A DNA stretch of 32,000 bases from Maledivibacter halophilus (GTDB taxonomy: Bacteria > Bacillota > Clostridia > Peptostreptococcales > Caminicellaceae): contig NZ_FUZT01000009.1 of assembly GCF_900167445.1 (NCBI RefSeq), forward strand, positions 169,058-201,057, read 5' to 3'. The stretch's first letter is position 1; each line of letters starts with the position of its first letter. The notes under the pieces were generated by a model, which was not told where the DNA came from, ran no database searches, and saw only the letters and a list, made by a program, of their open reading frames with translations. Shown here one piece after another: positions 6,366 through 31,933 of this stretch. The translations under genes and the position numbers were made by a program.

Positions 6366-7052
6366 ATGAAATATTTAGATACGGTAATGGAATTAGTCAT
6401 AGGTTTTATGGCTCTTTTTATTATTACAAAGATGATTGGTAAAAGACAAATTAGTCAGATTACTCCTTTTGATTTTATTTCTGCCATAGTATTGGGTGAA
6501 CTTTTAGGCAATGCCATATATGATAAAGAAATTGGATTACTATATATTATAAGTACATTGTTATTATGGGGAGTTCTTATGGTATTAGTTGAATTAATCA
6601 CACAGAAATTTAGAAAAACAAGGGGATTTTTAGAAGGCAATCCTTCTATAGTGATTAGGCAGGGATTAATTGATCGTAAGGAGTTAAACAAAAATAAGAT
6701 AGATATTAATGAATTACTAAATATGCTAAGACAAAAAGATGTTTTTTCAGTTCGTGAAGTTGAGTATGGAATTTTAGAAGCTGATGGAAAAATGAGTGTT
6801 TTGAAAAAATCTAAATATACACAGCCTACAATCGAGGATTTAGGGCTAACTAAAAAACCTTCATATTTGCCATTTGCATTAATTATTGATGGAGAGATTG
6901 TATTGGACAATCTAAAGAATAGTGGATTTGATGAAAAATGGCTCCAGATACAATTAAATAATCAGGGGTTTGATAGGGCTAAGGACATATTCTATGCTGA
7001 ATGGAAACAAGACGAAGGAATGCATATTGTACCTATGAAAGAAAAAGCATGA
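6366..7052 (+). CDS. DUF421 (YetF-like) membrane protein; tandem paralog
   Basis: The same motifs as the upstream gene (ISQITPFDFISAIVLGELLGN ... YAEWKQDEGMHIVP). I chose the start at ATG 6366 (or 6360) behind GGAGG at 6353-6357. The track start at 6270 overlaps the previous gene. Confidence 0.8.
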   Translation: MKYLDTVMELVIGFMALFIITKMIGKRQISQITPFDFISAIVLGELLGNAIYDKEIGLLYIISTLLLWGVLMVLVELITQKFRKTRGFLEGNPSIVIRQGLIDRKELNKNKIDINELLNMLRQKDVFSVREVEYGILEADGKMSVLKKSKYTQPTIEDLGLTKKPSYLPFALIIDGEIVLDNLKNSGFDEKWLQIQLNNQGFDRAKDIFYAEWKQDEGMHIVPMKEKA

Positions 7053-25309: not shown

Positions 25310-25351
25310 GCCGGACCTCCTTTCATTGATTGATGGTTAAAGTAAAATAGT

Positions 25352-25372
25352 TAAAGTTAATATATAACTTTA
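25352..25372. promoter_or_regulatory. 21-bp palindrome P1, TAAAGTTA-ATATA-TAACTTTA
   Basis: Perfect 8-bp arms. It lies 43 nt upstream of the thiS start (minus-strand gene). Confidence 0.5.
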
Positions 25373-25411
25373 TATATTTATGTAATCATTGAAAAATGTT
25401 ACCTTCATAGC

Positions 25412-25432
25412 TAAAGTTAAAGTTTAACTTTA
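25412..25432. promoter_or_regulatory. 21-bp palindrome P2, TAAAGTTA-AAGTT-TAACTTTA
   Basis: Perfect 8-bp arms, exactly 60 bp from P1. Confidence 0.5.
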
Positions 25433-25590
25433 AGTATAGAGAAACAATTTATACATCATAAACAATCCTAGGAGCATAGATGTTTTTAAAATCTATAAAT
25501 AAACCTTTTAATCAGTTAAATTTAGATGGTTTAAGTTAATATGGAGCTTTAGGTATCTAGATAGTTGTTGGAAAACCTCATTTTCAAGGT

Positions 25591-25611
25591 TAAAGTTAAA
25601 TTTGAACTTTA
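25591..25611. promoter_or_regulatory. 21-bp palindrome P3, TAAAGTTA-AATTT-GAACTTTA
   Basis: 8-bp arms with one mismatch. It lies just downstream (in the minus-strand sense) of the second leader terminator. Confidence 0.45.
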
Positions 25612-25623
25612 AATTGTGAATAT

Positions 25624-25757: not shown

Positions 25758-25796
25758 AGTAATAAACTATATTATATAAAAATACTTACTATAACA

Positions 25797-25886
25797 CACT
25801 TCCCTACGGTGGGATTAACCACGTCAGGTTATGAGGGTCAGAAATAACATTTCTATCTCAGCCTATTATATAGGCTCCCCTAGTTA
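25797..25886 (-). promoter_or_regulatory. TPP (THI-box) riboswitch aptamer
   Basis: The minus strand reads ACTAGGGGAGCC..GGCTGAGA..ACCCTCATAACCTGACGTGGTTAATCCCACCGTAGGGA, which contains the conserved CUGAGA, ACCCU..AACCUGA and CGUAGGGA elements. Confidence 0.9.
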
Positions 25887-25910
25887 CTATTAAATTTTTT
25901 CTTCAAAGGA

Positions 25911-26009: not shown

Positions 26010-26390
26010 AGATGGAATATGTAGAATTATAGAAACATACAGAATTTAACATTCTATTATTTATATGTTAGCCAGGCATTAAGTTCTATTAAATTTTTAT
26101 ATAAATATGTTTTAAGCAAGGAAAGAAAAGATAGATATACAATTCTTTCCCAAATAGTTTTAAATATTCTTAGGGAATATGCAAAATATGAAAAACCAGA
26201 AGATTGGTTATTTACAGGAGGAAAAGAAGGTGAATATTTAAAGGAACGATCAGTTCAACTCTTAGATATATACAAGAAGTATTAGGGCATACAAGTTCAA
26301 AGACCACCGAAATATATACTCATGTGAGTAAAACAAACTTAACAAAAATAAAAAGTCCTTTAGATAAAATATTAAAAAAAGACAATTAAT
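26010..26390 (+). pseudogene. Tyrosine recombinase (integron-integrase/XerC-like) pseudogene with internal deletions and frameshifts
   Basis: Fragments lie in different frames: ..SQALSSIKFLYKYVL / SKERKDRYTILSQIVLNILREYAKYEKPEDWLFTG..ERSVQ / LRYIQEVLGHTSSKTTEIYTHVSKTNLTKIKSPLDKIL*. These are N-terminal SAM-like, KDRY, and catalytic HxxR..Y-region motifs. Most of the catalytic domain is missing. Confidence 0.75.
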
Positions 26391-26435: not shown

Positions 26436-26517
26436 CATTACCGACATAAATAGTCGCGTAACATACTTATCTAGAAGTATTAGCGACATGGGTTAGTCGG
26501 TAACGCATTAGTTAGAT
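26436..26517 (+). other. Complex palindromic recombination-site candidate (attI-like or attC-like) ending in the GTTAGAT core
   Basis: A 71-nt imperfect palindrome: GCATTACCGAC..GTCGCGTAAC-ATACTT-atctag-AAGTAT-TAGCGAC..GTCGGTAACGC. It is followed by CGGTAAC, 6 nt, and GTTAGAT (26511-26517). It contains four TAAC/GTTA-type boxes. Confidence 0.5.
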
Positions 26518-26635
26518 AAAATTCCCAACTCATTTCGGAGATTACTATTGGGTTATTTAATATTGGATTAGAATATGAGTTGTGAATAATCAATAGATGA
26601 AGTATATTTATGAAGATTGAGGGGATGGTTTGATT

Positions 26636-27586
26636 ATGTATCTAAAAAGAAAATATATTAGTCTATTATATGTATTAATAATTGCTCTTACTGTTGGGTG
26701 TAGCAACAGTATGGAAGAAATTGTTTACAATTTTCCTTTAGAAAGAGATGTAGTAGAGCAAGTAATATTAGAGAAACAATTAACTTGGCGCATAGAAGAT
26801 GAACAATCTCTTAACGAAGGCCAATCAAATTTCTCATTAAGAGATGAAGATAACGTTTTTTGCAGTATAAATAGTACAGACGGAGAATGGGGAAGAGTTA
26901 TAATATTACAATTCCATTTTCCACTAGATTATACAACAGAGCAAATACAGCAGTTTAATAAAGAAGAATGGCCTAGTATATTTGAACTTACCTGTACTTT
27001 TTACGGAAATAGTAAAAATGCAAAAAAAATCTATAAAGAGTTTTTAGGTTATTTAAAAGGCAGGAACAGTAATGAATATGATTATGGATACTTTACAAAA
27101 CGTATAGACGATACTCATTTTAGAGTAAAATTAGCTCCATTCACAAATAATAGCAACTATTATCAAATAGCTACTTTAGAAATTTTAAATAGTGAGACTT
27201 ATGAAAAAAGAGCATTTGAATTTGCAAAAGGATGGATAAATAGGGCAAAAAGACAAGGAATAAAAGTATTAGACAATATTAGTGTTTCTGATATTATAGA
27301 AATTAAAACAGAAGATGAGGAATTACGGTTAATTGTTGAAGGTCATTTAGAGGATATTCAAGAATTAAAAAATATACCTAAAAATCTTCAAGAAGTACTT
27401 ACCCATCACGCACATAAGGACGACTATTTTACCGCCAAGTTAGTGGACGATACTAGTAGTATGGATGTGTTTGTTCTTGCTACTTCTCTTAACTCTAGAG
27501 AATTAGGACAAGATAGAAGTCATCATATTAATTATTATACTAAAGGGAAATTAAGTGTTATAAATTTTAGTCCATTAAATGAATAA
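26636..27586 (+). CDS. Hypothetical lipoprotein
   Basis: Signal peptide with lipobox (..LIIALTVGC SNS). No family recognised. The start could be ATG 26636 or TTG 26630, both after GAGGGGA. Confidence 0.7.
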   Translation: MYLKRKYISLLYVLIIALTVGCSNSMEEIVYNFPLERDVVEQVILEKQLTWRIEDEQSLNEGQSNFSLRDEDNVFCSINSTDGEWGRVIILQFHFPLDYTTEQIQQFNKEEWPSIFELTCTFYGNSKNAKKIYKEFLGYLKGRNSNEYDYGYFTKRIDDTHFRVKLAPFTNNSNYYQIATLEILNSETYEKRAFEFAKGWINRAKRQGIKVLDNISVSDIIEIKTEDEELRLIVEGHLEDIQELKNIPKNLQEVLTHHAHKDDYFTAKLVDDTSSMDVFVLATSLNSRELGQDRSHHINYYTKGKLSVINFSPLNE

Positions 27587-27745
27587 AGAATATTTGAATA
27601 ACAAGTATGAATATAAAGTTGCTACTTCTTAAAACATAAAGAAAAATTTACTATTTTCAACTATCATAAAGGTTATTTTAATATAAATGATTTAAAAGAT
27701 ATTTATTTACATTAAATTGAGAATAAAAAATTAAGGAGATTAATA

Positions 27746-28411
27746 ATGAATGAAAAACAATTAATTGCAGAAAAAGCAGTTGATTTTATCAAGGATGGAA
27801 TGATTGTTGGCTTAGGAACAGGTTCAACTGCTTATTGGGCAATTACAAAAATAGGTGAATTAGTTCGAAATGGTATGAATATTAAAGGTGTTCCAACATC
27901 TATAAATACAGAAAAATTAGCACAAAATTTAAATATTCCTTTAGTGAATATTTCTGAGATTAAAAAAATAGATATAACAATTGATGGGGCTGATGAGTTT
28001 GATGAAAATAAAAATGTTATAAAAGGTGGTGGAGGTGCACTTTTAAGAGAAAAAATTATTGCTTCAATTACTAATTATTATATTATAATAGCTGATTCTT
28101 CTAAAAAAGTAGAAGTTTTGGGAAACTTTCCATTACCTATAGAAGTAACTCCTTTTGCTCATGAGATAACAATTTATCAATTAAAACAGTTAGGATGTTC
28201 AACGAATTTAAGGTTAGAAAATGACAAACCATTTATAACTGATAATAAGAATTTCATAGTTGATTGCAAATTCAATAGGATTAACAAACCAGAAGAATTA
28301 GCAAATAAATTAAATAGTATTCCAGGTGTTGTAGAGCATGGATTATTTTCAAATATGGCAGATATTCTAGTTACCGTAAATAATTGTGGAGAAATTTCAA
28401 TTATTGAATAG
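27746..28411 (+). CDS. rpiA: Ribose-5-phosphate isomerase A
   Basis: 221 aa with GLGTGSTA, DGADE and KGGGGALLREKI motifs. A strong RBS AAGGAG lies upstream. Confidence 0.92.
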   Translation: MNEKQLIAEKAVDFIKDGMIVGLGTGSTAYWAITKIGELVRNGMNIKGVPTSINTEKLAQNLNIPLVNISEIKKIDITIDGADEFDENKNVIKGGGGALLREKIIASITNYYIIIADSSKKVEVLGNFPLPIEVTPFAHEITIYQLKQLGCSTNLRLENDKPFITDNKNFIVDCKFNRINKPEELANKLNSIPGVVEHGLFSNMADILVTVNNCGEISIIE

Positions 28412-28474
28412 CATTATATGATAGCTTATTTAAATTACTATGGAGGCGGTTTTCATAGGTCGAGCGACCACATC

Positions 28475-28510
28475 ATCTAACATTGTGTTTAGCGTAAAGG
28501 TGCGCAGAAG
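28475..28510 (+). repeat. attC-like repeat, 5' half only (truncated)
   Basis: ATCTAAC (RYYYAAC) followed by att-GTGTTTAGCG-TAAAGGTGC. This parallels the 5' end of the 30156 copy (GTCTAAC-aac-GAATTTACG-TAAAGGTGC). No matching 3' half or GTTRRRY core is present. Confidence 0.5.
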
Positions 28511-28514
28511 AATT

Positions 28515-28790
28515 GTACGCGTTGGAACACATACTGGACATGATAACCTTAAGACTAGATTATATTCACATTTTAGAGGAAAAAATCAAAGAAGTAGTAT
28601 TTTTAGGCGGAATATTGGTCGGGTTTATTTAAATAAAGATAATAAGAATTATTTACCAATTTGGAATTCCAGTAGAAATAATAAGAGTTCAACTCTTAGA
28701 TATATACAAGAATTATTAGGACATAGAAGTTCAAAGACAACAGAAATATATACTCATTTAGAAGTATTAGCGACATATGAGAGTCGGTAA
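28515..28790 (+). pseudogene. Mosaic remnant: fragment of a GIY-YIG-like cassette gene fused to a second copy of the recombinase 3' tail and half-palindrome
   Basis: VGTHTG..LKTRLYSHFRGKNQRSSIFRRNIG resembles GIY-YIG-type proteins (weak). Positions 28686-28757 repeat 26252-26323 with 5 mismatches in 72 nt (LRYIQELLGHRSSKTTEIYTH). Positions 28758-28793 repeat the right half of the 26436-26506 palindrome. Confidence 0.6.
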
Positions 28791-28832
28791 CGTAACATAT
28801 GCCTATATTTGTTAAACCGAGGAGGTCAAAAA

Positions 28833-29426
28833 ATGAGATATATTTTTGCAATTGGTGGAGGAGAAATAAGTGAGTTAGAAACATTTGGTATAGATAAAAA
28901 GATAGTTGAAGCTGCTAAAAAGGCTAAACCGAATGTATTATTTATACCTACAGCTAGTGGAGAACCACAAGGATATATAGATTCATTTAACAACGTATAT
29001 GGTAAAAAGCTTGGATGTAAGACAGATGTCCTTTTATTGTTAGAAGGTAAAATACTTTGTGGTTTAAGTGCTGGCTCAATTTGCTGGTTTAAAAGTGGCC
29101 ATGGTGACTCTGAAAGTTTTGAAACAGAAGGTAAATGGAATTATATAAGGGTAGAAGGAATAAACCTATTAGATGCTATGCACTGTCCACACTATAATGA
29201 AGATAATAGAGAAGAAGATTTTTCAAAGAAGATATTAGAATATGATGAGATTGGTATAGCTATTGATAACAACTGTGCAATTGAATTTAAAGAAAATAGC
29301 TATAGAGTACATAAAACAGAAAAAGAAGCAAAAGCTTACAAAGTTTATCTAGACAAGGGACAAATTATAAAAGAAGAGTTGGTTAATATAACAGAGTATA
29401 AGTCAGTTAAAAGAGTTGTTTTGTAA
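28833..29426 (+). CDS. Peptidase S51 (dipeptidase E-like) family protein, probably with an in-frame internal deletion
   Basis: IFAIGGGE, LFIPTAS and the nucleophile motif CGLSAGSICWF are present. The Ser lies at about residue 79 instead of about 120, and the GGGNT segment is absent. ATG 28833 follows GGAGG and the core GTTAAAC (28811-28817). Confidence 0.65.
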   Translation: MRYIFAIGGGEISELETFGIDKKIVEAAKKAKPNVLFIPTASGEPQGYIDSFNNVYGKKLGCKTDVLLLLEGKILCGLSAGSICWFKSGHGDSESFETEGKWNYIRVEGINLLDAMHCPHYNEDNREEDFSKKILEYDEIGIAIDNNCAIEFKENSYRVHKTEKEAKAYKVYLDKGQIIKEELVNITEYKSVKRVVL

Positions 29427-29441
29427 GTAGGGCATACGATC

Positions 29442-29581
29442 ACCTAACAATGCCTTACCGTTCGCTACGTGAAGTAAGTTTCTAGGGTTAGTGAAGCACA
29501 TGTTTTCACTGGGTGCAATCACCACCAAGGAGTATTCTTTATGGGTCCGTTCAAGCACGTAGGCAAGCCGAGATGTTAAGC
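29442..29581 (+). repeat. attC-like repeat (140 bp, subfamily 1)
   Basis: Starts with ACCTAAC (RYYYAAC) 15 nt after the stop codon and ends with GTTAAGC (GTTRRRY). Inner boxes GCCTTACC / GGCAAGCC have asymmetric spacers (3 vs 5 nt). It is much more GC-rich than the flanks. Confidence 0.6.
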
Positions 29582-29621
29582 GAAAATTAGTGGTAACTAC
29601 ATTTAAATGAAGGTGGTTTAT

Positions 29622-30125
29622 ATGAAAATCTTAATATTTCTTCATGGAACAATAATAATGCATAAAAATGGTCTTGATAAAAGTAGAGAAGAAAGAGTAA
29701 AGCAAGTTTTGAGTGATGATAACTCAATTCATGATTTTTTAAATTATATTCCGATTGGTAAGTCATATGAAAAATTAAAAATTTGGGTTAAGCAAGAAGT
29801 GGAAATTTTCTATCTCAGTTCCAACCAGTTACTTGATGATATAAATAAAGATCTTTTTGTTTTGAGAAAATATGAATTTCCAAAAGGTAAATTGTTATAT
29901 AGAAAAAATGGTCAAAGTTACAAAGATATTGCAGAAGAAATAATACCAGACATTCTGATTGAAGATAATTGTGAAAGTATTGGTGGAACAGCTGAAATGG
30001 TTTACCCAAATATGTCAAGTTTAATAAAAAAACAAGTTAAATCTATTGTATTAAAAGAATTTGAAGGAATAGATAAGTTACCAACTAATGTTGAAGATTT
30101 AAAAGACTGGTATAAAATAGTTTGA
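29622..30125 (+). CDS. Hypothetical protein (167 aa)
   Basis: RBS GAAGGTGG precedes ATG 29622. No family recognised. The gene is bounded by attC-like repeats on both sides. Confidence 0.6.
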   Translation: MKILIFLHGTIIMHKNGLDKSREERVKQVLSDDNSIHDFLNYIPIGKSYEKLKIWVKQEVEIFYLSSNQLLDDINKDLFVLRKYEFPKGKLLYRKNGQSYKDIAEEIIPDILIEDNCESIGGTAEMVYPNMSSLIKKQVKSIVLKEFEGIDKLPTNVEDLKDWYKIV

Positions 30126-30155
30126 ATCTTTGTGTCATGGGAATCACTAACCATC

Positions 30156-30278
30156 GTCTAACAACGAATTTACGTAAAGGTGCTTTTAGAGAAGATTATT
30201 GAGGTAGATGAACCACATTTCTTCACTAAGGGTAGCCGCCTTAGAGTTCAGAGACGTCGCAAATACAAAACGTTATCT
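30156..30278 (+). repeat. attC-like repeat (123 bp, subfamily 2)
   Basis: GTCTAAC-aac-GAATTTACG ... CGCAAATAC-aaaac-GTTATCT. The 5' core matches RYYYAAC. The 3' core deviates from GTTRRRY (GTTATCT). The central segment GAACCACATTTCTTCACT is shared with subfamily 1. Confidence 0.55.
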
Positions 30279-30340
30279 AACATTTTATTTCATTTTTTAT
30301 TTATAGAATTATTTGAGCTTGTACAGGAGGCGATTAAATA

Positions 30341-31134
30341 ATGGGCAAATTTCATGATGTCAATTTTATTAATCTACCATATAAATTAAAATCAATGCAT
30401 TGTTGGAAAAAGATACTATTGGTTGTTCTAGTTCAGAGATATTTTTTCTTGAAGGTATCTCAAGTGGAGGAAATGCATATTTGAAAGTCTGTAGTAGTGA
30501 AAGTGATTCTATGGAAAAAGAAAAAAATATTTTAAATTGGCTGGATGGGAAAGTACCTGTTCCAAAGGTGCTTCATTATAATGTTTTCGATAATAAACAA
30601 TTCATGCTAATTTCAGAAATAAAAGGTTTAAATGCAGCTCATTATTATTATACTTCTAAACCAGCCACAGTTGACACAATGTTAGCAAGATCTCTTAGAT
30701 TAATTCATGATATAGATATAACGTGCTGTCCATTTGATAGTAGGCTTAATATAAAGATTGGTGAAGCCAAAAAACGTGTTGATTGTGGATTAGTGGATGA
30801 AAATAACTTTGAAGAAAATTATATATGAAAGGCAAGTGAAGAATTATATAAAATGGTTTTAGAAAAGAAACCTGATAATGAAGATTTTGTTTTTACTCAT
30901 GGTGATTATTGTATGGCTAACATAATATTATTGGGTAATAAATTGAGTGGATTTATTGATTTAGGAAGAGCAGGAGTTAGTGATAGATATCAAGATATAG
31001 CATTAGCAGTACGTAGTTTTGAACATAATTTTGGAACAGACAAGTGGAATGATTTATTTTATAAAGAATATGGCATTGAAGATGTGGACTATTCTAAAAT
31101 AGAATTTTATATTTTGCTTGATGAATTGTTTTAG
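30341..31134 (+). pseudogene. aph(3')-like aminoglycoside phosphotransferase pseudogene
   Basis: NWLDGKVPVPKVLHY, FTHGDYCMANI, GFIDLGRAGVSDRYQDIALAVRS and the C-terminal YILLDELF closely parallel APH(3')-III. The reading frame shifts near 30395-30405. An in-frame TGA lies at 30826-30828. Confidence 0.8.
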
Positions 31135-31158
31135 AAAAAGGGAATGAAATAAAACGTC

Positions 31159-31300
31159 AGATAATAATACCTTGCCGTTCACTGTGTAAAGCAAGTTTTT
31201 AGGGTAAGCGCAGCACATACCTTCACTGGGAGCAAGCTCCACCAAGAGAGCATTCCTTACGGGCCCAGTTCAGGCACGTCGGCAATCCGGGACGTTAGCT
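31159..31300 (+). repeat. attC-like repeat (142 bp, subfamily 1)
   Basis: Colinear with 29442-29581, at roughly three-quarters identity by eye. The 5' core is degenerate (AGATAAT). It ends in GTTAGCT. Inner boxes are TTGCCG / CGGCAA. Confidence 0.55.
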
Positions 31301-31441: not shown

Positions 31442-31933
31442 ATGGAAGCAAAAGTAAGACAAGCAGTAGATAGTGATAGAGATATTTTTGTTGATTACAC
31501 AGTAAAATTAAGTAAATTCAATCGAAGTAATCATGCTAATGAATCAAAAAATGATGATTATGAATCAGTTTTAAATGCAATACAAAGAAAAGCTGAAAAA
31601 ACATTCTGTAATAGAAATGAAGAGACTTTAATCTTAATTGCAGAATTAGAAAATAAACCTGTAGGATATGCATTAGGCAGAATATATGAACAGGATGAAA
31701 CAGCTGATAATGGAACAGGTTTAATGGGATTATTTGATGAGTTATTCGTTGATGATATAGCAAGAGGGCTTGGATTAGGACAAAAACTATTAGATAAAAC
31801 GATTATCTGGATGAAAGAAAAAGGAATTAATAGAGTTAAATTACATGCTTATTCTTGGAACAGTAATGCTAAAAAAGTATATGAACGAAATGGTTTTAAA
31901 GAATATGCAGTATCGTATGAAAAGTTTATCTAA
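31442..31933 (+). CDS. GNAT-family N-acetyltransferase
   Basis: ..LFVDDIARGLGLGQKLLDKTIIWMKEKGINRVKLHAYSWNSNAKKVYERNGF is the acetyl-CoA-binding motif A/B region of GNATs. ATG 31442 follows GGAGG. Confidence 0.85.
   Translation: MEAKVRQAVDSDRDIFVDYTVKLSKFNRSNHANESKNDDYESVLNAIQRKAEKTFCNRNEETLILIAELENKPVGYALGRIYEQDETADNGTGLMGLFDELFVDDIARGLGLGQKLLDKTIIWMKEKGINRVKLHAYSWNSNAKKVYERNGFKEYAVSYEKFI

Follow-up and report, generated by a model that had tools for sequence, protein, structure and literature searches.

The 32-kb stretch of Maledivibacter halophilus DNA considered here (contig NZ_FUZT01000009.1, positions 169,058 to 201,057; hereafter the window, with coordinates counted from its first letter) carries, towards its 3' end, a series of repeats placed between co-oriented genes. 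These repeats are very probably attC-type recombination sites, each closing a mobile gene cassette at its 3' end, in an integron-type array that is sedentary and chromosomal. An attC interpretation had been proposed in an initial annotation of the sequence and was supported by comparison with related arrays, all the predicted architectural elements being present. The strongest argument for attC had not been foreseen at that stage: the opening box of each site (R'') pairs with the closing box (R') of the site that precedes it. Judged by their sequence, the repeats display every feature by which attC sites are recognised, and recombination at them is predicted.

The window is AT-rich (guanine-plus-cytosine content, GC, approximately 27%), and the attC-like sites form GC islands of 39-54%. 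Exact matches of its proteins assign it to M. halophilus, which is a halophile of the Clostridia. From about 26.4 kb to the window end, every gene lies on the + strand, with GC-rich islands between genes. The sites are the following (nt, nucleotides):

28475-28537, + strand: w0, truncated attC (5' half only); R'' ATCTAAC, spacer ATT, L'' GTGTTTAGCG, continued by TAAAGGTGC and then a damaged extended-stem strand AACACATACTGG
29442-29581, + strand: w1, attC of 140 nt, subfamily 1 (nhmmer E = 3e-29; alignment feature mapping; covariation); R'' 29442-29448 (ACCTAAC), L'' 29453-29460, bulge TTCGCT and variable arm; extended stem with 5' strand 29498-29512, 3' strand 29547-29560 and apex 29513-29546 (GGTG-caat-CACC); L' 29561-29568, spacer 29569-29574, R' 29575-29581 (GTTAAGC)
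30156-30278, + strand: w2, attC of 123 nt, subfamily 2, with a short apex (nhmmer E = 9e-18; covariance model; alignment mapping); R'' 30156-30162 (GTCTAAC), L'' 30167-30174, TAAAGGTGC arm; extended stem with 5' strand 30215-30229, running on into CTAAGG/CCTTAG with a 7-nt loop, and 3' strand 30243-30257; L' 30258-30265, spacer 30266-30271, R' 30272-30278 (GTTATCT)
31159-31300, + strand: w3, attC of 142 nt, subfamily 1 (nhmmer E = 6e-34; covariance model; alignment mapping); R'' 31159-31165 (AGATAAT), L'' 31170-31177; extended stem with 5' strand 31215-31229, 3' strand 31265-31279 and apex 31230-31264 (GGAG-caag-CTCC); L' 31280-31287, spacer 31288-31293, R' 31294-31300 (GTTAGCT)

In integron arrays the crossover falls inside R', at G|TT, and the last six core bases of a site are part of the cassette that follows. 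R'' is therefore expected to complement the R' of the preceding site, and not the adjacent R' of its own site. The test covered the array formed by the window and L001, a public contig that is identical to the window end where the two overlap and holds seven further sites. With four variable R-box positions counted per R'', 34 of 36 positions matched the preceding R' and 21 of 36 the R' of the same site (permutation p = 6e-5). The flanking 10 nt likewise matched the preceding site (63/90, p < 1e-5), and the R'' of w3 complements the preceding R', GTTATCT, at 4/4 variable positions. The same rule holds in loci L034 (5/5), L025, L033, L043 and L050. This chain of complementarity, the decisive result at the level of sequence, reads as the footprint of cassette-by-cassette recombination within the core, and is left unexplained by RNA, terminator or simple-repeat models.

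Anatomy, covariation and folding of the sites

Read along the top strand, a site opens with an outer flank of about 10 nt (consensus ..aYrTC), followed by R'' (RYYYAAC), a spacer of 3-4 nt and an L'' box of 8-9 nt, after which come extra bases confined to the double-prime arm, the arm that carries the extrahelical bases of attC (PMC5027507). These consist of a single A within L'' in w0 and in sites L1, L5 and L7, or, in w1, w3, L3 and the minimal sites, of a bulge of 6-11 nt that starts TTYGCT and comes directly behind L''; model attCs have two to three single extrahelical bases, and the bulge of the window family is thus larger. An optional insertion precedes the 5' strand of the extended stem (CATCTCTTCACYGG), the apical region is small, with a GGNGC..GCNCC hairpin, and the 3' half is made up of the 3' strand of the extended stem (CCRGTTCAGAGAYRT), L', a longer spacer, R' (GTTRRRY) and a flank beginning GAAAT. 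The AAC/GTT of the cores is nearly invariant in 24 sites, with minor deviations at the RRRY positions; the interior is variable, and the sites are placed 3' of co-oriented open reading frames (ORFs).

Most of the initial description agreed with this anatomy. The boundaries assigned to w1 (29442-29581, ACCTAAC...GTTAAGC), w2 (30156-30278, GTCTAAC...GTTATCT) and w3 (31159-31300, AGATAAT...GTTAGCT) were exact, and the colinearity described for w1 and w3 was confirmed, their first 90 nt aligning ungapped at 78% identity and the two sites being alignable end to end. The sequence said to be shared by w2 and the partial copy at 28475, ATCTAAC/GTCTAAC..TTTA(G)CGTAAAGGTGC, is present in both, but the partial copy ends at about 28537 and not at about 28510, and includes a damaged central block. 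That block, CACATnnCTTCACTGG, had been described as common to the two subfamilies and does occur in all four sites; it is not a separate core motif, being the 5' strand of the extended stem. Its helix partner is equally conserved (GGTCCRGTTCAG), and the 3' strand that pairs with it reads GGTCCRGTTCAGRGAC. It is chiefly the arm joining L'' to the extended stem that sets apart the two subfamilies that had been distinguished. The high homogeneity attributed to the sites was found to be only moderate, at approximately 78% within subfamily 1.

The attC architecture itself, with terminal inverted cores, an L box behind an unequal unpaired spacer and extra bases on the 5' arm, was recovered as described. 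The spacer asymmetry is constant, the 3' spacer being 2 nt longer than the 5' spacer in all family members (3/5, 4/6 or 6/8, according to the point from which the L box is counted), and the terminal inverted cores fit RYYYAAC/GTTRRRY. The stem that had been seen to covary, GGTG..CACC in w1 versus GGAG..CTCC in w3, has a third state in L034, GGCG..CGCC, and alignment pair 100:235 within it is UA in 9 sites, CG in 6 and AU in 5.

Covariation was assessed on 24-36 copies from approximately 11 Firmicute genomes, gathered by nhmmer and a covariance model and all oriented the same way. When 24 sites were aligned by plain MAFFT, without fitting to any structure, 88% of L-box positions were paired, with compensatory double changes at 7/8 pairs, and 92% of those in the extended stem, with compensatory changes at 9/12 pairs; overall pairing was 84%, versus 71% in column shuffles and 30-41% when the partners were slid by 1-3 columns. 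A separate model-fitted alignment of 36 sites gave 89% pairing and compensatory changes at 28 of 36 pairs. The covarying helices are anchored on the terminal cores and do not describe an unrelated RNA fold, so that the refuting outcomes named in the initial annotation did not arise. When applied to the 32-kb window, the covariance model matched at w1, w2 and w3 alone and in a single orientation, and the nhmmer E-values of the window sites (1e-17 to 1e-34) are far beyond chance. A naive regular-expression attC finder was dropped, as it was far too permissive in AT-rich DNA. RNAalifold found no structure on a heterogeneous 9-site MAFFT alignment and worked only on five minimal sites.

In the proposed mechanism, one strand, probably the bottom one, would fold into a long imperfect hairpin, whose R helix would consist of the terminal cores RYYYAAC/GTTRRRY together with about 10 nt outside them; inward of it would lie the unequal unpaired spacer, the L helix, the bulges of the double-prime arm, the extended stem and the variable tip. 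The choice of strand is suggested by the consensus energy (-36.1 kcal/mol for the bottom strand vs -25.5 for the top strand) and by the excess of G·T pairs on the bottom strand over C·A (116 to 30).

Conserved covarying helices would also form in RNA, and the sites occupy transcribed intergenic positions, so that structured RNA elements (3'-untranslated-region stabilisers, insulators or small RNAs), with the terminal cores incidental, were weighed as an alternative. We consider it very unlikely. An Rfam 15 scan of the window at the gathering threshold returned a single match, a thiamine pyrophosphate (TPP) riboswitch elsewhere in the window, and none at the sites; no RNA family was found on L001, with its seven sites, even at E <= 1. 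A terminator scan showed no enrichment and no terminator-like T-runs. The better-pairing strand is, moreover, antisense to the genes, and an RNA function gives no account of cores and flanks that complement the preceding site, nor of the attI-like site behind a recombinase gene described below.

Non-autonomous transposons of the miniature inverted-repeat (MITE) or repetitive extragenic palindromic (REP) type, with 17-bp terminal inverted repeats and inserted in tandem at a hotspot, would account for the inverted 17-mers flanking each cassette and for a GC content unlike that of the host. This explanation is equally hard to credit, since the L helix and extended stem lie on only one side of each junction and covary as parts of a hairpin across the junction-proximal core, every unit points the same way from a single start site behind a tyrosine recombinase gene, and the 32-kb window holds no scattered copies elsewhere and no transposase.

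Upstream platform and recombinase family

The array is preceded by the remains of a recombination platform, part of which recurs further downstream:

26076-26386, + strand: decayed tyrosine recombinase gene, in two frames (26076-26258 and 26255-26386)
26439-26517, + strand: attI-like site, with palindromes TACCGACAT..AGTCGC and TTAGCGACAT..AGTCGGTAA, then core GTTAGAT at 26511-26517
28689-28817, + strand: duplicated recombinase C-terminus (28689-28760) fused to a duplicated attI-like 3' half, ending GTTAAAC at 28811-28817

The recombinase remnant lacks its N-terminal two thirds, and an internal deletion has removed the beginning of the catalytic domain. It matches Pfam Phage_integrase and the C-termini of the NCBIfam XerA, XerC and integron integrase models, and is 52% identical to P0001 and other members of its family. 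Reverse-complemented, the core of the attI-like site, GTTAGAT, gives the R'' of the next attC, w0 (ATCTAAC, 28475). The site lies downstream of the recombinase gene and co-oriented with it, not divergent as in class 1. As to a cassette promoter (Pc) directed into the array, promoter-like matches were no more frequent than in shuffled sequence (38 vs 36.3). In related loci, two to three palindromes of type CGACAnnnnTGTCG are followed by GTTRRRY-GAAAT, 60-130 nt past the recombinase stop codon, and the recombinase gene is co-oriented with the array in every one of them.

The recombinase has relatives in many Clostridia. Intact ones, 345-385 amino acids (aa) long, are encoded in L025, L029, L032, L034, L038, L042, L043, L045, L048 and L050, and broken ones in L002 (Clostridium bovifaecis), L005, L007 and L033. 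A search with the 105-aa remnant had returned only ORFs of up to 182 aa, and a 'mini' recombinase was considered; it was rejected, as the DNA shows broken genes and fragments and full-length proteins of 345-385 aa exist. The intact proteins combine Phage_int_SAM_4 and Phage_integrase domains, and, among solved structures, XerA (5hxy) and the Vibrio cholerae integron integrase VchIntIA (2a3v) are closest to them in both sequence and fold. The IntI-specific insertion is absent from them: 26 residues stand in place of the 68 in VchIntIA (residues 175-242), the alignment with XerA is continuous, and the match to TIGR02249 falls into two pieces that skip profile positions 176-234, with a score of 205 below the cut-off of 265. 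The initial annotation had likened the array to chromosomal superintegrons; the platform is no classical superintegron, the recombinase gene being decayed here and its intact relatives lacking the IntI-specific domain. Many members are already named 'site-specific tyrosine recombinase/integron integrase' by NCBI via NF040815. No paper tying this recombinase family to cassette arrays was found in the literature searched, which is not proof of absence.

The intact proteins carry an extra N-terminal domain of about 60 residues, with the motif F.Y....V.KIK.I.GR.W....K.W.IP, which is conserved from Firmicutes to Bacteroidota and Archaea. Its match to Pfam HARP is weak (E = 4e-5, below the cut-off); a structural model of the domain (predicted local distance difference test score, pLDDT, 91) resembles the HARP substrate-recognition domain of SMARCAL1 (probability 0.95, template modelling score, TM, 0.54), and also the XPB damage-recognition domain (DRD) and Mfd, with weak structural E-values (0.07 and above). 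HARP, the XPB damage-recognition domain and Mfd are structure-specific DNA binders. We infer that the HARP-like domain may help to recognise the folded or branched attC, replacing the IntI insertion.

A genome scan found the recombinase family in Spirochaetota, Nitrospirae, Atribacteria, Bacteroidota, Aminicenantes and several archaeal phyla, with a GTTRRRY site after the stop codon in all loci examined. Of 43 loci whose downstream DNA was long enough, 28 showed the attI-like 17-mer again downstream, reverse-complemented, at 14/17 identities or better, and matched controls reached a maximum of 13. Tiled cassette chains followed the recombinase in Desulfitobacterium sp. Sab5 (12), Flavobacterium terrisoli (approximately 11), a Spirochaetota metagenome-assembled genome (MAG; 5) and Arundinibacter (4); the cassette-pair scan is blind to strand, the relation being symmetric. 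Sites between the cassettes of these chains form hairpins in which an R box and an L box are accompanied by a one-sided spacer. The window attC sequence family is itself confined to Firmicutes, with 36 covariance-model matches in 316 kb versus one weak match in 646 kb from other phyla, all 36 in one orientation and downstream of the recombinase gene.

This recurrent linkage of recombinase, attI-like site and array bears on a further alternative, namely that the window holds an ordinary group of clustered attC sites with no integron integrase (CALIN), derived from a classical integron whose true IntI has been lost or lies elsewhere, the Xer-like remnant being an unrelated neighbour. CALINs are reported in Firmicutes (PMC9024848), the sites fit the canonical attC description, and the window remnant is uninformative alone. 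The alternative nonetheless appears improbable, as the same recombinase family lies directly upstream of the arrays and in their orientation, both in approximately 11 Firmicute genomes and in further phyla, gene and array are separated by a conserved attI-like site whose core and flank complement the first cassette end (28 of the 43 loci at 14/17 or better), and an IntI-type gene occurs in none of these loci. The cognate enzyme of the array is most likely the family of the decayed gene at 26076-26386, related to XerA and IntI, without the IntI insertion and with the N-terminal HARP-like domain. A role in Xer/dif dimer resolution was also considered for this family and rejected, given the attI-like site and arrays next to the gene, the two copies in single MAGs and the frequent pseudogenes. 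The paired copies lie on different contigs of single MAGs (L010/L016 and L055/L058), which argues against a housekeeping Xer role.

Some individual loci show further variation. In the complete genome of Desulfitobacterium sp. Sab5 (L048, 10675-20432), an intact recombinase gene is followed by at least 12 cassettes, in an array whose attCs are partly 75 nt long and include two of 128 nt that are of the window type. Right after the attI-like site of an Atribacteria MAG (L024, 10640-10800) there are very short units, GTTAAGC...GCTTAAC and GTTAGGC...GCCTAAC, which may be empty or minimal cassettes. In L069 and L046 (Bacteroidota) and L058 (Spirochaetota), a single-base bulge and the long spacer are found on the prime (3' top) arm, unlike in the window family, which bulges on the double-prime arm; the recombined strand might thus differ between lineages.

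Within the window, the annotated 116-aa ORF at 28440-28817 is chimeric, joining truncated w0, a GIY-YIG_3 fragment (28524-28631), a second recombinase C-terminus and an attI-like half; the 3' half of w0 has been replaced by the GIY-YIG fragment and then by duplicated recombinase and attI sequence. The second recombinase C-terminus is 93% identical to 26252-26323, and the duplications belong to repeat families D3 (93% identity) and D5 (86% identity). The chimera suggests a past duplication or rearrangement of the platform within the array. Upstream, the TPP riboswitch (25784-25891, - strand, 78 bits) precedes a thiS/thiF/thiG operon, and the cassette platform starts right after its leader region. 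Between the thi operon and the riboswitch lie AT-rich direct and inverted repeats of GTTAAAGTTAA-like units (25336-25433 and 25515-25612), the two 98-nt copies being 72% identical.

Cassettes, strain comparison and state of the system

The cassette genes of the window are as follows:

26512-28474, + strand: first cassette, bounded by the attI-like core and w0; putative lipoprotein 26630-27586 and RpiA 27746-28411 (NCBIfam, 283 bits)
28833-29426, + strand: cassette ORF, peptidase S51 family (Pfam PF03575, E = 2e-29)
29622-30125, + strand: cassette ORF, 167-aa hypothetical protein (exact match to WP_079493537.1)
30341-31134, + strand: cassette ORF, APH(3')-family aminoglycoside phosphotransferase pseudogene (NCBIfam NF033068 in each half, at 117 and 135 bits), now in pieces at 30341-30484, 30400-30828 and 30853-31134
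31442-31933, + strand: cassette ORF, GNAT acetyltransferase (Pfam PF00583)

The attC of the GNAT cassette (AGCTAAC...GTTAGCT) falls just past the window end, at 32100-32250 in merged coordinates. Counting w0 as half a site, the window holds 3.5 attC sites and the contig at least 11, with no IntI-type gene on the contig. The array, which continues beyond the window, comprises at least 12 co-oriented cassettes; a sister strain, L089, adds at least four sites beyond L001, bringing the total to well over a dozen. The cargo, which is of a kind typical for integron cassettes, comprises GNAT acetyltransferases, the broken APH(3'), peptidase S51, a glyoxalase, HD and PHP domain proteins and ParE. The two ORFs of the first cassette are not separated by an attC, and one of them is a full-length RpiA, a housekeeping-type enzyme. 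The APH(3') pseudogene places a resistance-type gene inside an environmental Clostridia array.

Exchange would begin with a tyrosine recombinase cutting within the conserved GTT/AAC of the core of the folded site, followed by strand exchange with the attI-like site just downstream of the recombinase's own gene, or with another attC, so that cassettes would be inserted or excised one by one.

Several observations count against this interpretation. Although 99.9% identical, L089 lacks 7.9 kb, corresponding to seven cassettes, and its junction (6398-6412, equal to window 30019-30033 and merged 37953-37967) is an A-rich microhomology inside the ORF at 29622-30125 and not an attC core. The difference is therefore an illegitimate deletion and not an integrase-mediated attC x attC excision. 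It is the sole strain difference found, and an integrase-mediated event was not directly observed. The window recombinase is too decayed to be classified on its own, and some cores are off consensus (AGATAAT, AGAGAAG, GTTCTCT). The strand comparison is biased, as the model was derived from the bottom strand and G·U pairs were admitted in it, and 65 of the 116 G·T cells come from three conserved columns. Folding, which had been put forward as a check in the initial annotation, also went against expectation for the window copies: unconstrained folds of w1-w3 with DNA parameters neither recovered nor favoured the attC fold, their stability was like that of shuffled sequences (z from -0.6 to +0.8), and with the consensus helices imposed they came out 3-11 kcal/mol less stable than at the unconstrained energy minimum. 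The expected fold is formed by several sister sites, L1, L2 and L5 (z from -3 to -5.5), and the poor folding of w1-w3 may mean that the window copies are decaying like the rest of the platform.

The system in M. halophilus looks dead, because the recombinase is a pseudogene, one attC is truncated, part of the platform is duplicated, a cassette gene is broken and the strain difference is an illegitimate deletion; the array would then be a fossil, unless an intact copy of the recombinase elsewhere acts in trans. As the linked recombinase family lacks the defining IntI domain, the locus should not be classed with the classical integrons. Operationally it is a CALIN, and mechanistically it most likely resembles an integron that uses a different, Xer-like integrase. 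In a broader and more tentative reading, which we regard as quite possible though short of probable, the window is a decayed member of a widespread and unrecognised integron class, with an XerA/IntI-related integrase, a HARP/XPB-DRD-like domain in place of the IntI insertion and attI downstream of the gene, which would explain many CALINs in Firmicutes, Bacteroidota, Spirochaetota, Nitrospirae and Archaea.

Significance and relation to known systems

Integrons are the main cassette-capture system of bacteria. In Firmicutes, which make up 22% of RefSeq genomes, a single complete integron has been reported, and their near-absence has been called unexplained (PMC4889954, PMC9024848). The present findings suggest that this gap is partly one of definition, since Clostridia contain real attC-type arrays, bearing the footprint of exchange, that are tied to a recombinase not counted as IntI by current finders. 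If this enzyme is the cognate integrase, the definition and taxonomic range of integrons would need widening, many CALINs would count as complete elements, whether the IntI extra domain is needed to recognise folded attC would become a testable question, and anaerobes would hold a large cassette reservoir, including the GNATs and APH(3') seen here. If the broader reading of an unrecognised class is true, Gram-positive anaerobes are not integron-free, and that class may represent the ancestral state or an independent route to folded-attC recombination.

The window sites share with the attCs of sedentary chromosomal integrons, such as the Vibrio cholerae repeats (VCRs), the RYYYAAC/GTTRRRY cores, the unpaired central spacer, the L box, the extra bases on the double-prime arm, the variable tip and the position 3' of a promoterless co-oriented ORF. 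Also shared are the hybrid sites, whose last core bases come from the next cassette, and the similarity of sites within an array and a lineage (PMC5027507; PMC4889954). Unlike VCRs, the window family has a helix that runs about 10 nt outside the R box, reaches lengths of up to 182 nt, keeps the extended stem and a large bulge of 6-11 nt across genera, and has a low-GC Clostridia species as host and a linked recombinase that is not IntI. As in reported Firmicute CALINs, surveyed with IntegronFinder (PMC4889954, PMC9024848) and noted in 'different genera' (PMC9024848), the attC cluster has no recognisable IntI; unlike them, the clusters described here are accompanied by a specific recombinase family and an attI-like site, forming in the relatives complete platforms and not orphans.

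In archaeal integrons (Ghaly et al. 2022, PMC9668308), six IntIs, with the IntI-specific domain, were reported for 539 archaeal attCs. The present arrays resemble them in that attI is immediately downstream of, and co-oriented with, the recombinase gene and that most arrays take the form of CALINs (PMC9668308). The taxa overlap as well, loci of Altiarchaeota, Micrarchaeota and Methanosarcinales carrying the recombinase family found here, which differs from the archaeal IntIs in lacking the IntI-specific domain. 'Integron-like' simple recombinases without the IntI insertion have been described by Smyshlyaev et al. (10.1101/542381) and attributed to IS91/IS3 elements. The family resembles this subgroup and XerA in its best matches by sequence and fold (XerA 5hxy and VchIntIA 2a3v), its SAM_4-type core-binding domain and the absence of the IntI insertion, and departs from both in its extra N-terminal HARP-like domain, in the several copies possible per genome and in a gene that is always followed by GTTRRRY and cassettes, in contrast to enzymes that work at a dif site or inside an IS91 element. 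The co-orientation of the recombinase gene with the cassettes is likewise seen in the Treponema-type reverse-orientation integrons of Spirochaetes, whose integrases, according to the literature as cited in PMC9668308, are true IntIs with the extra domain, unlike the family linked to the arrays described here.

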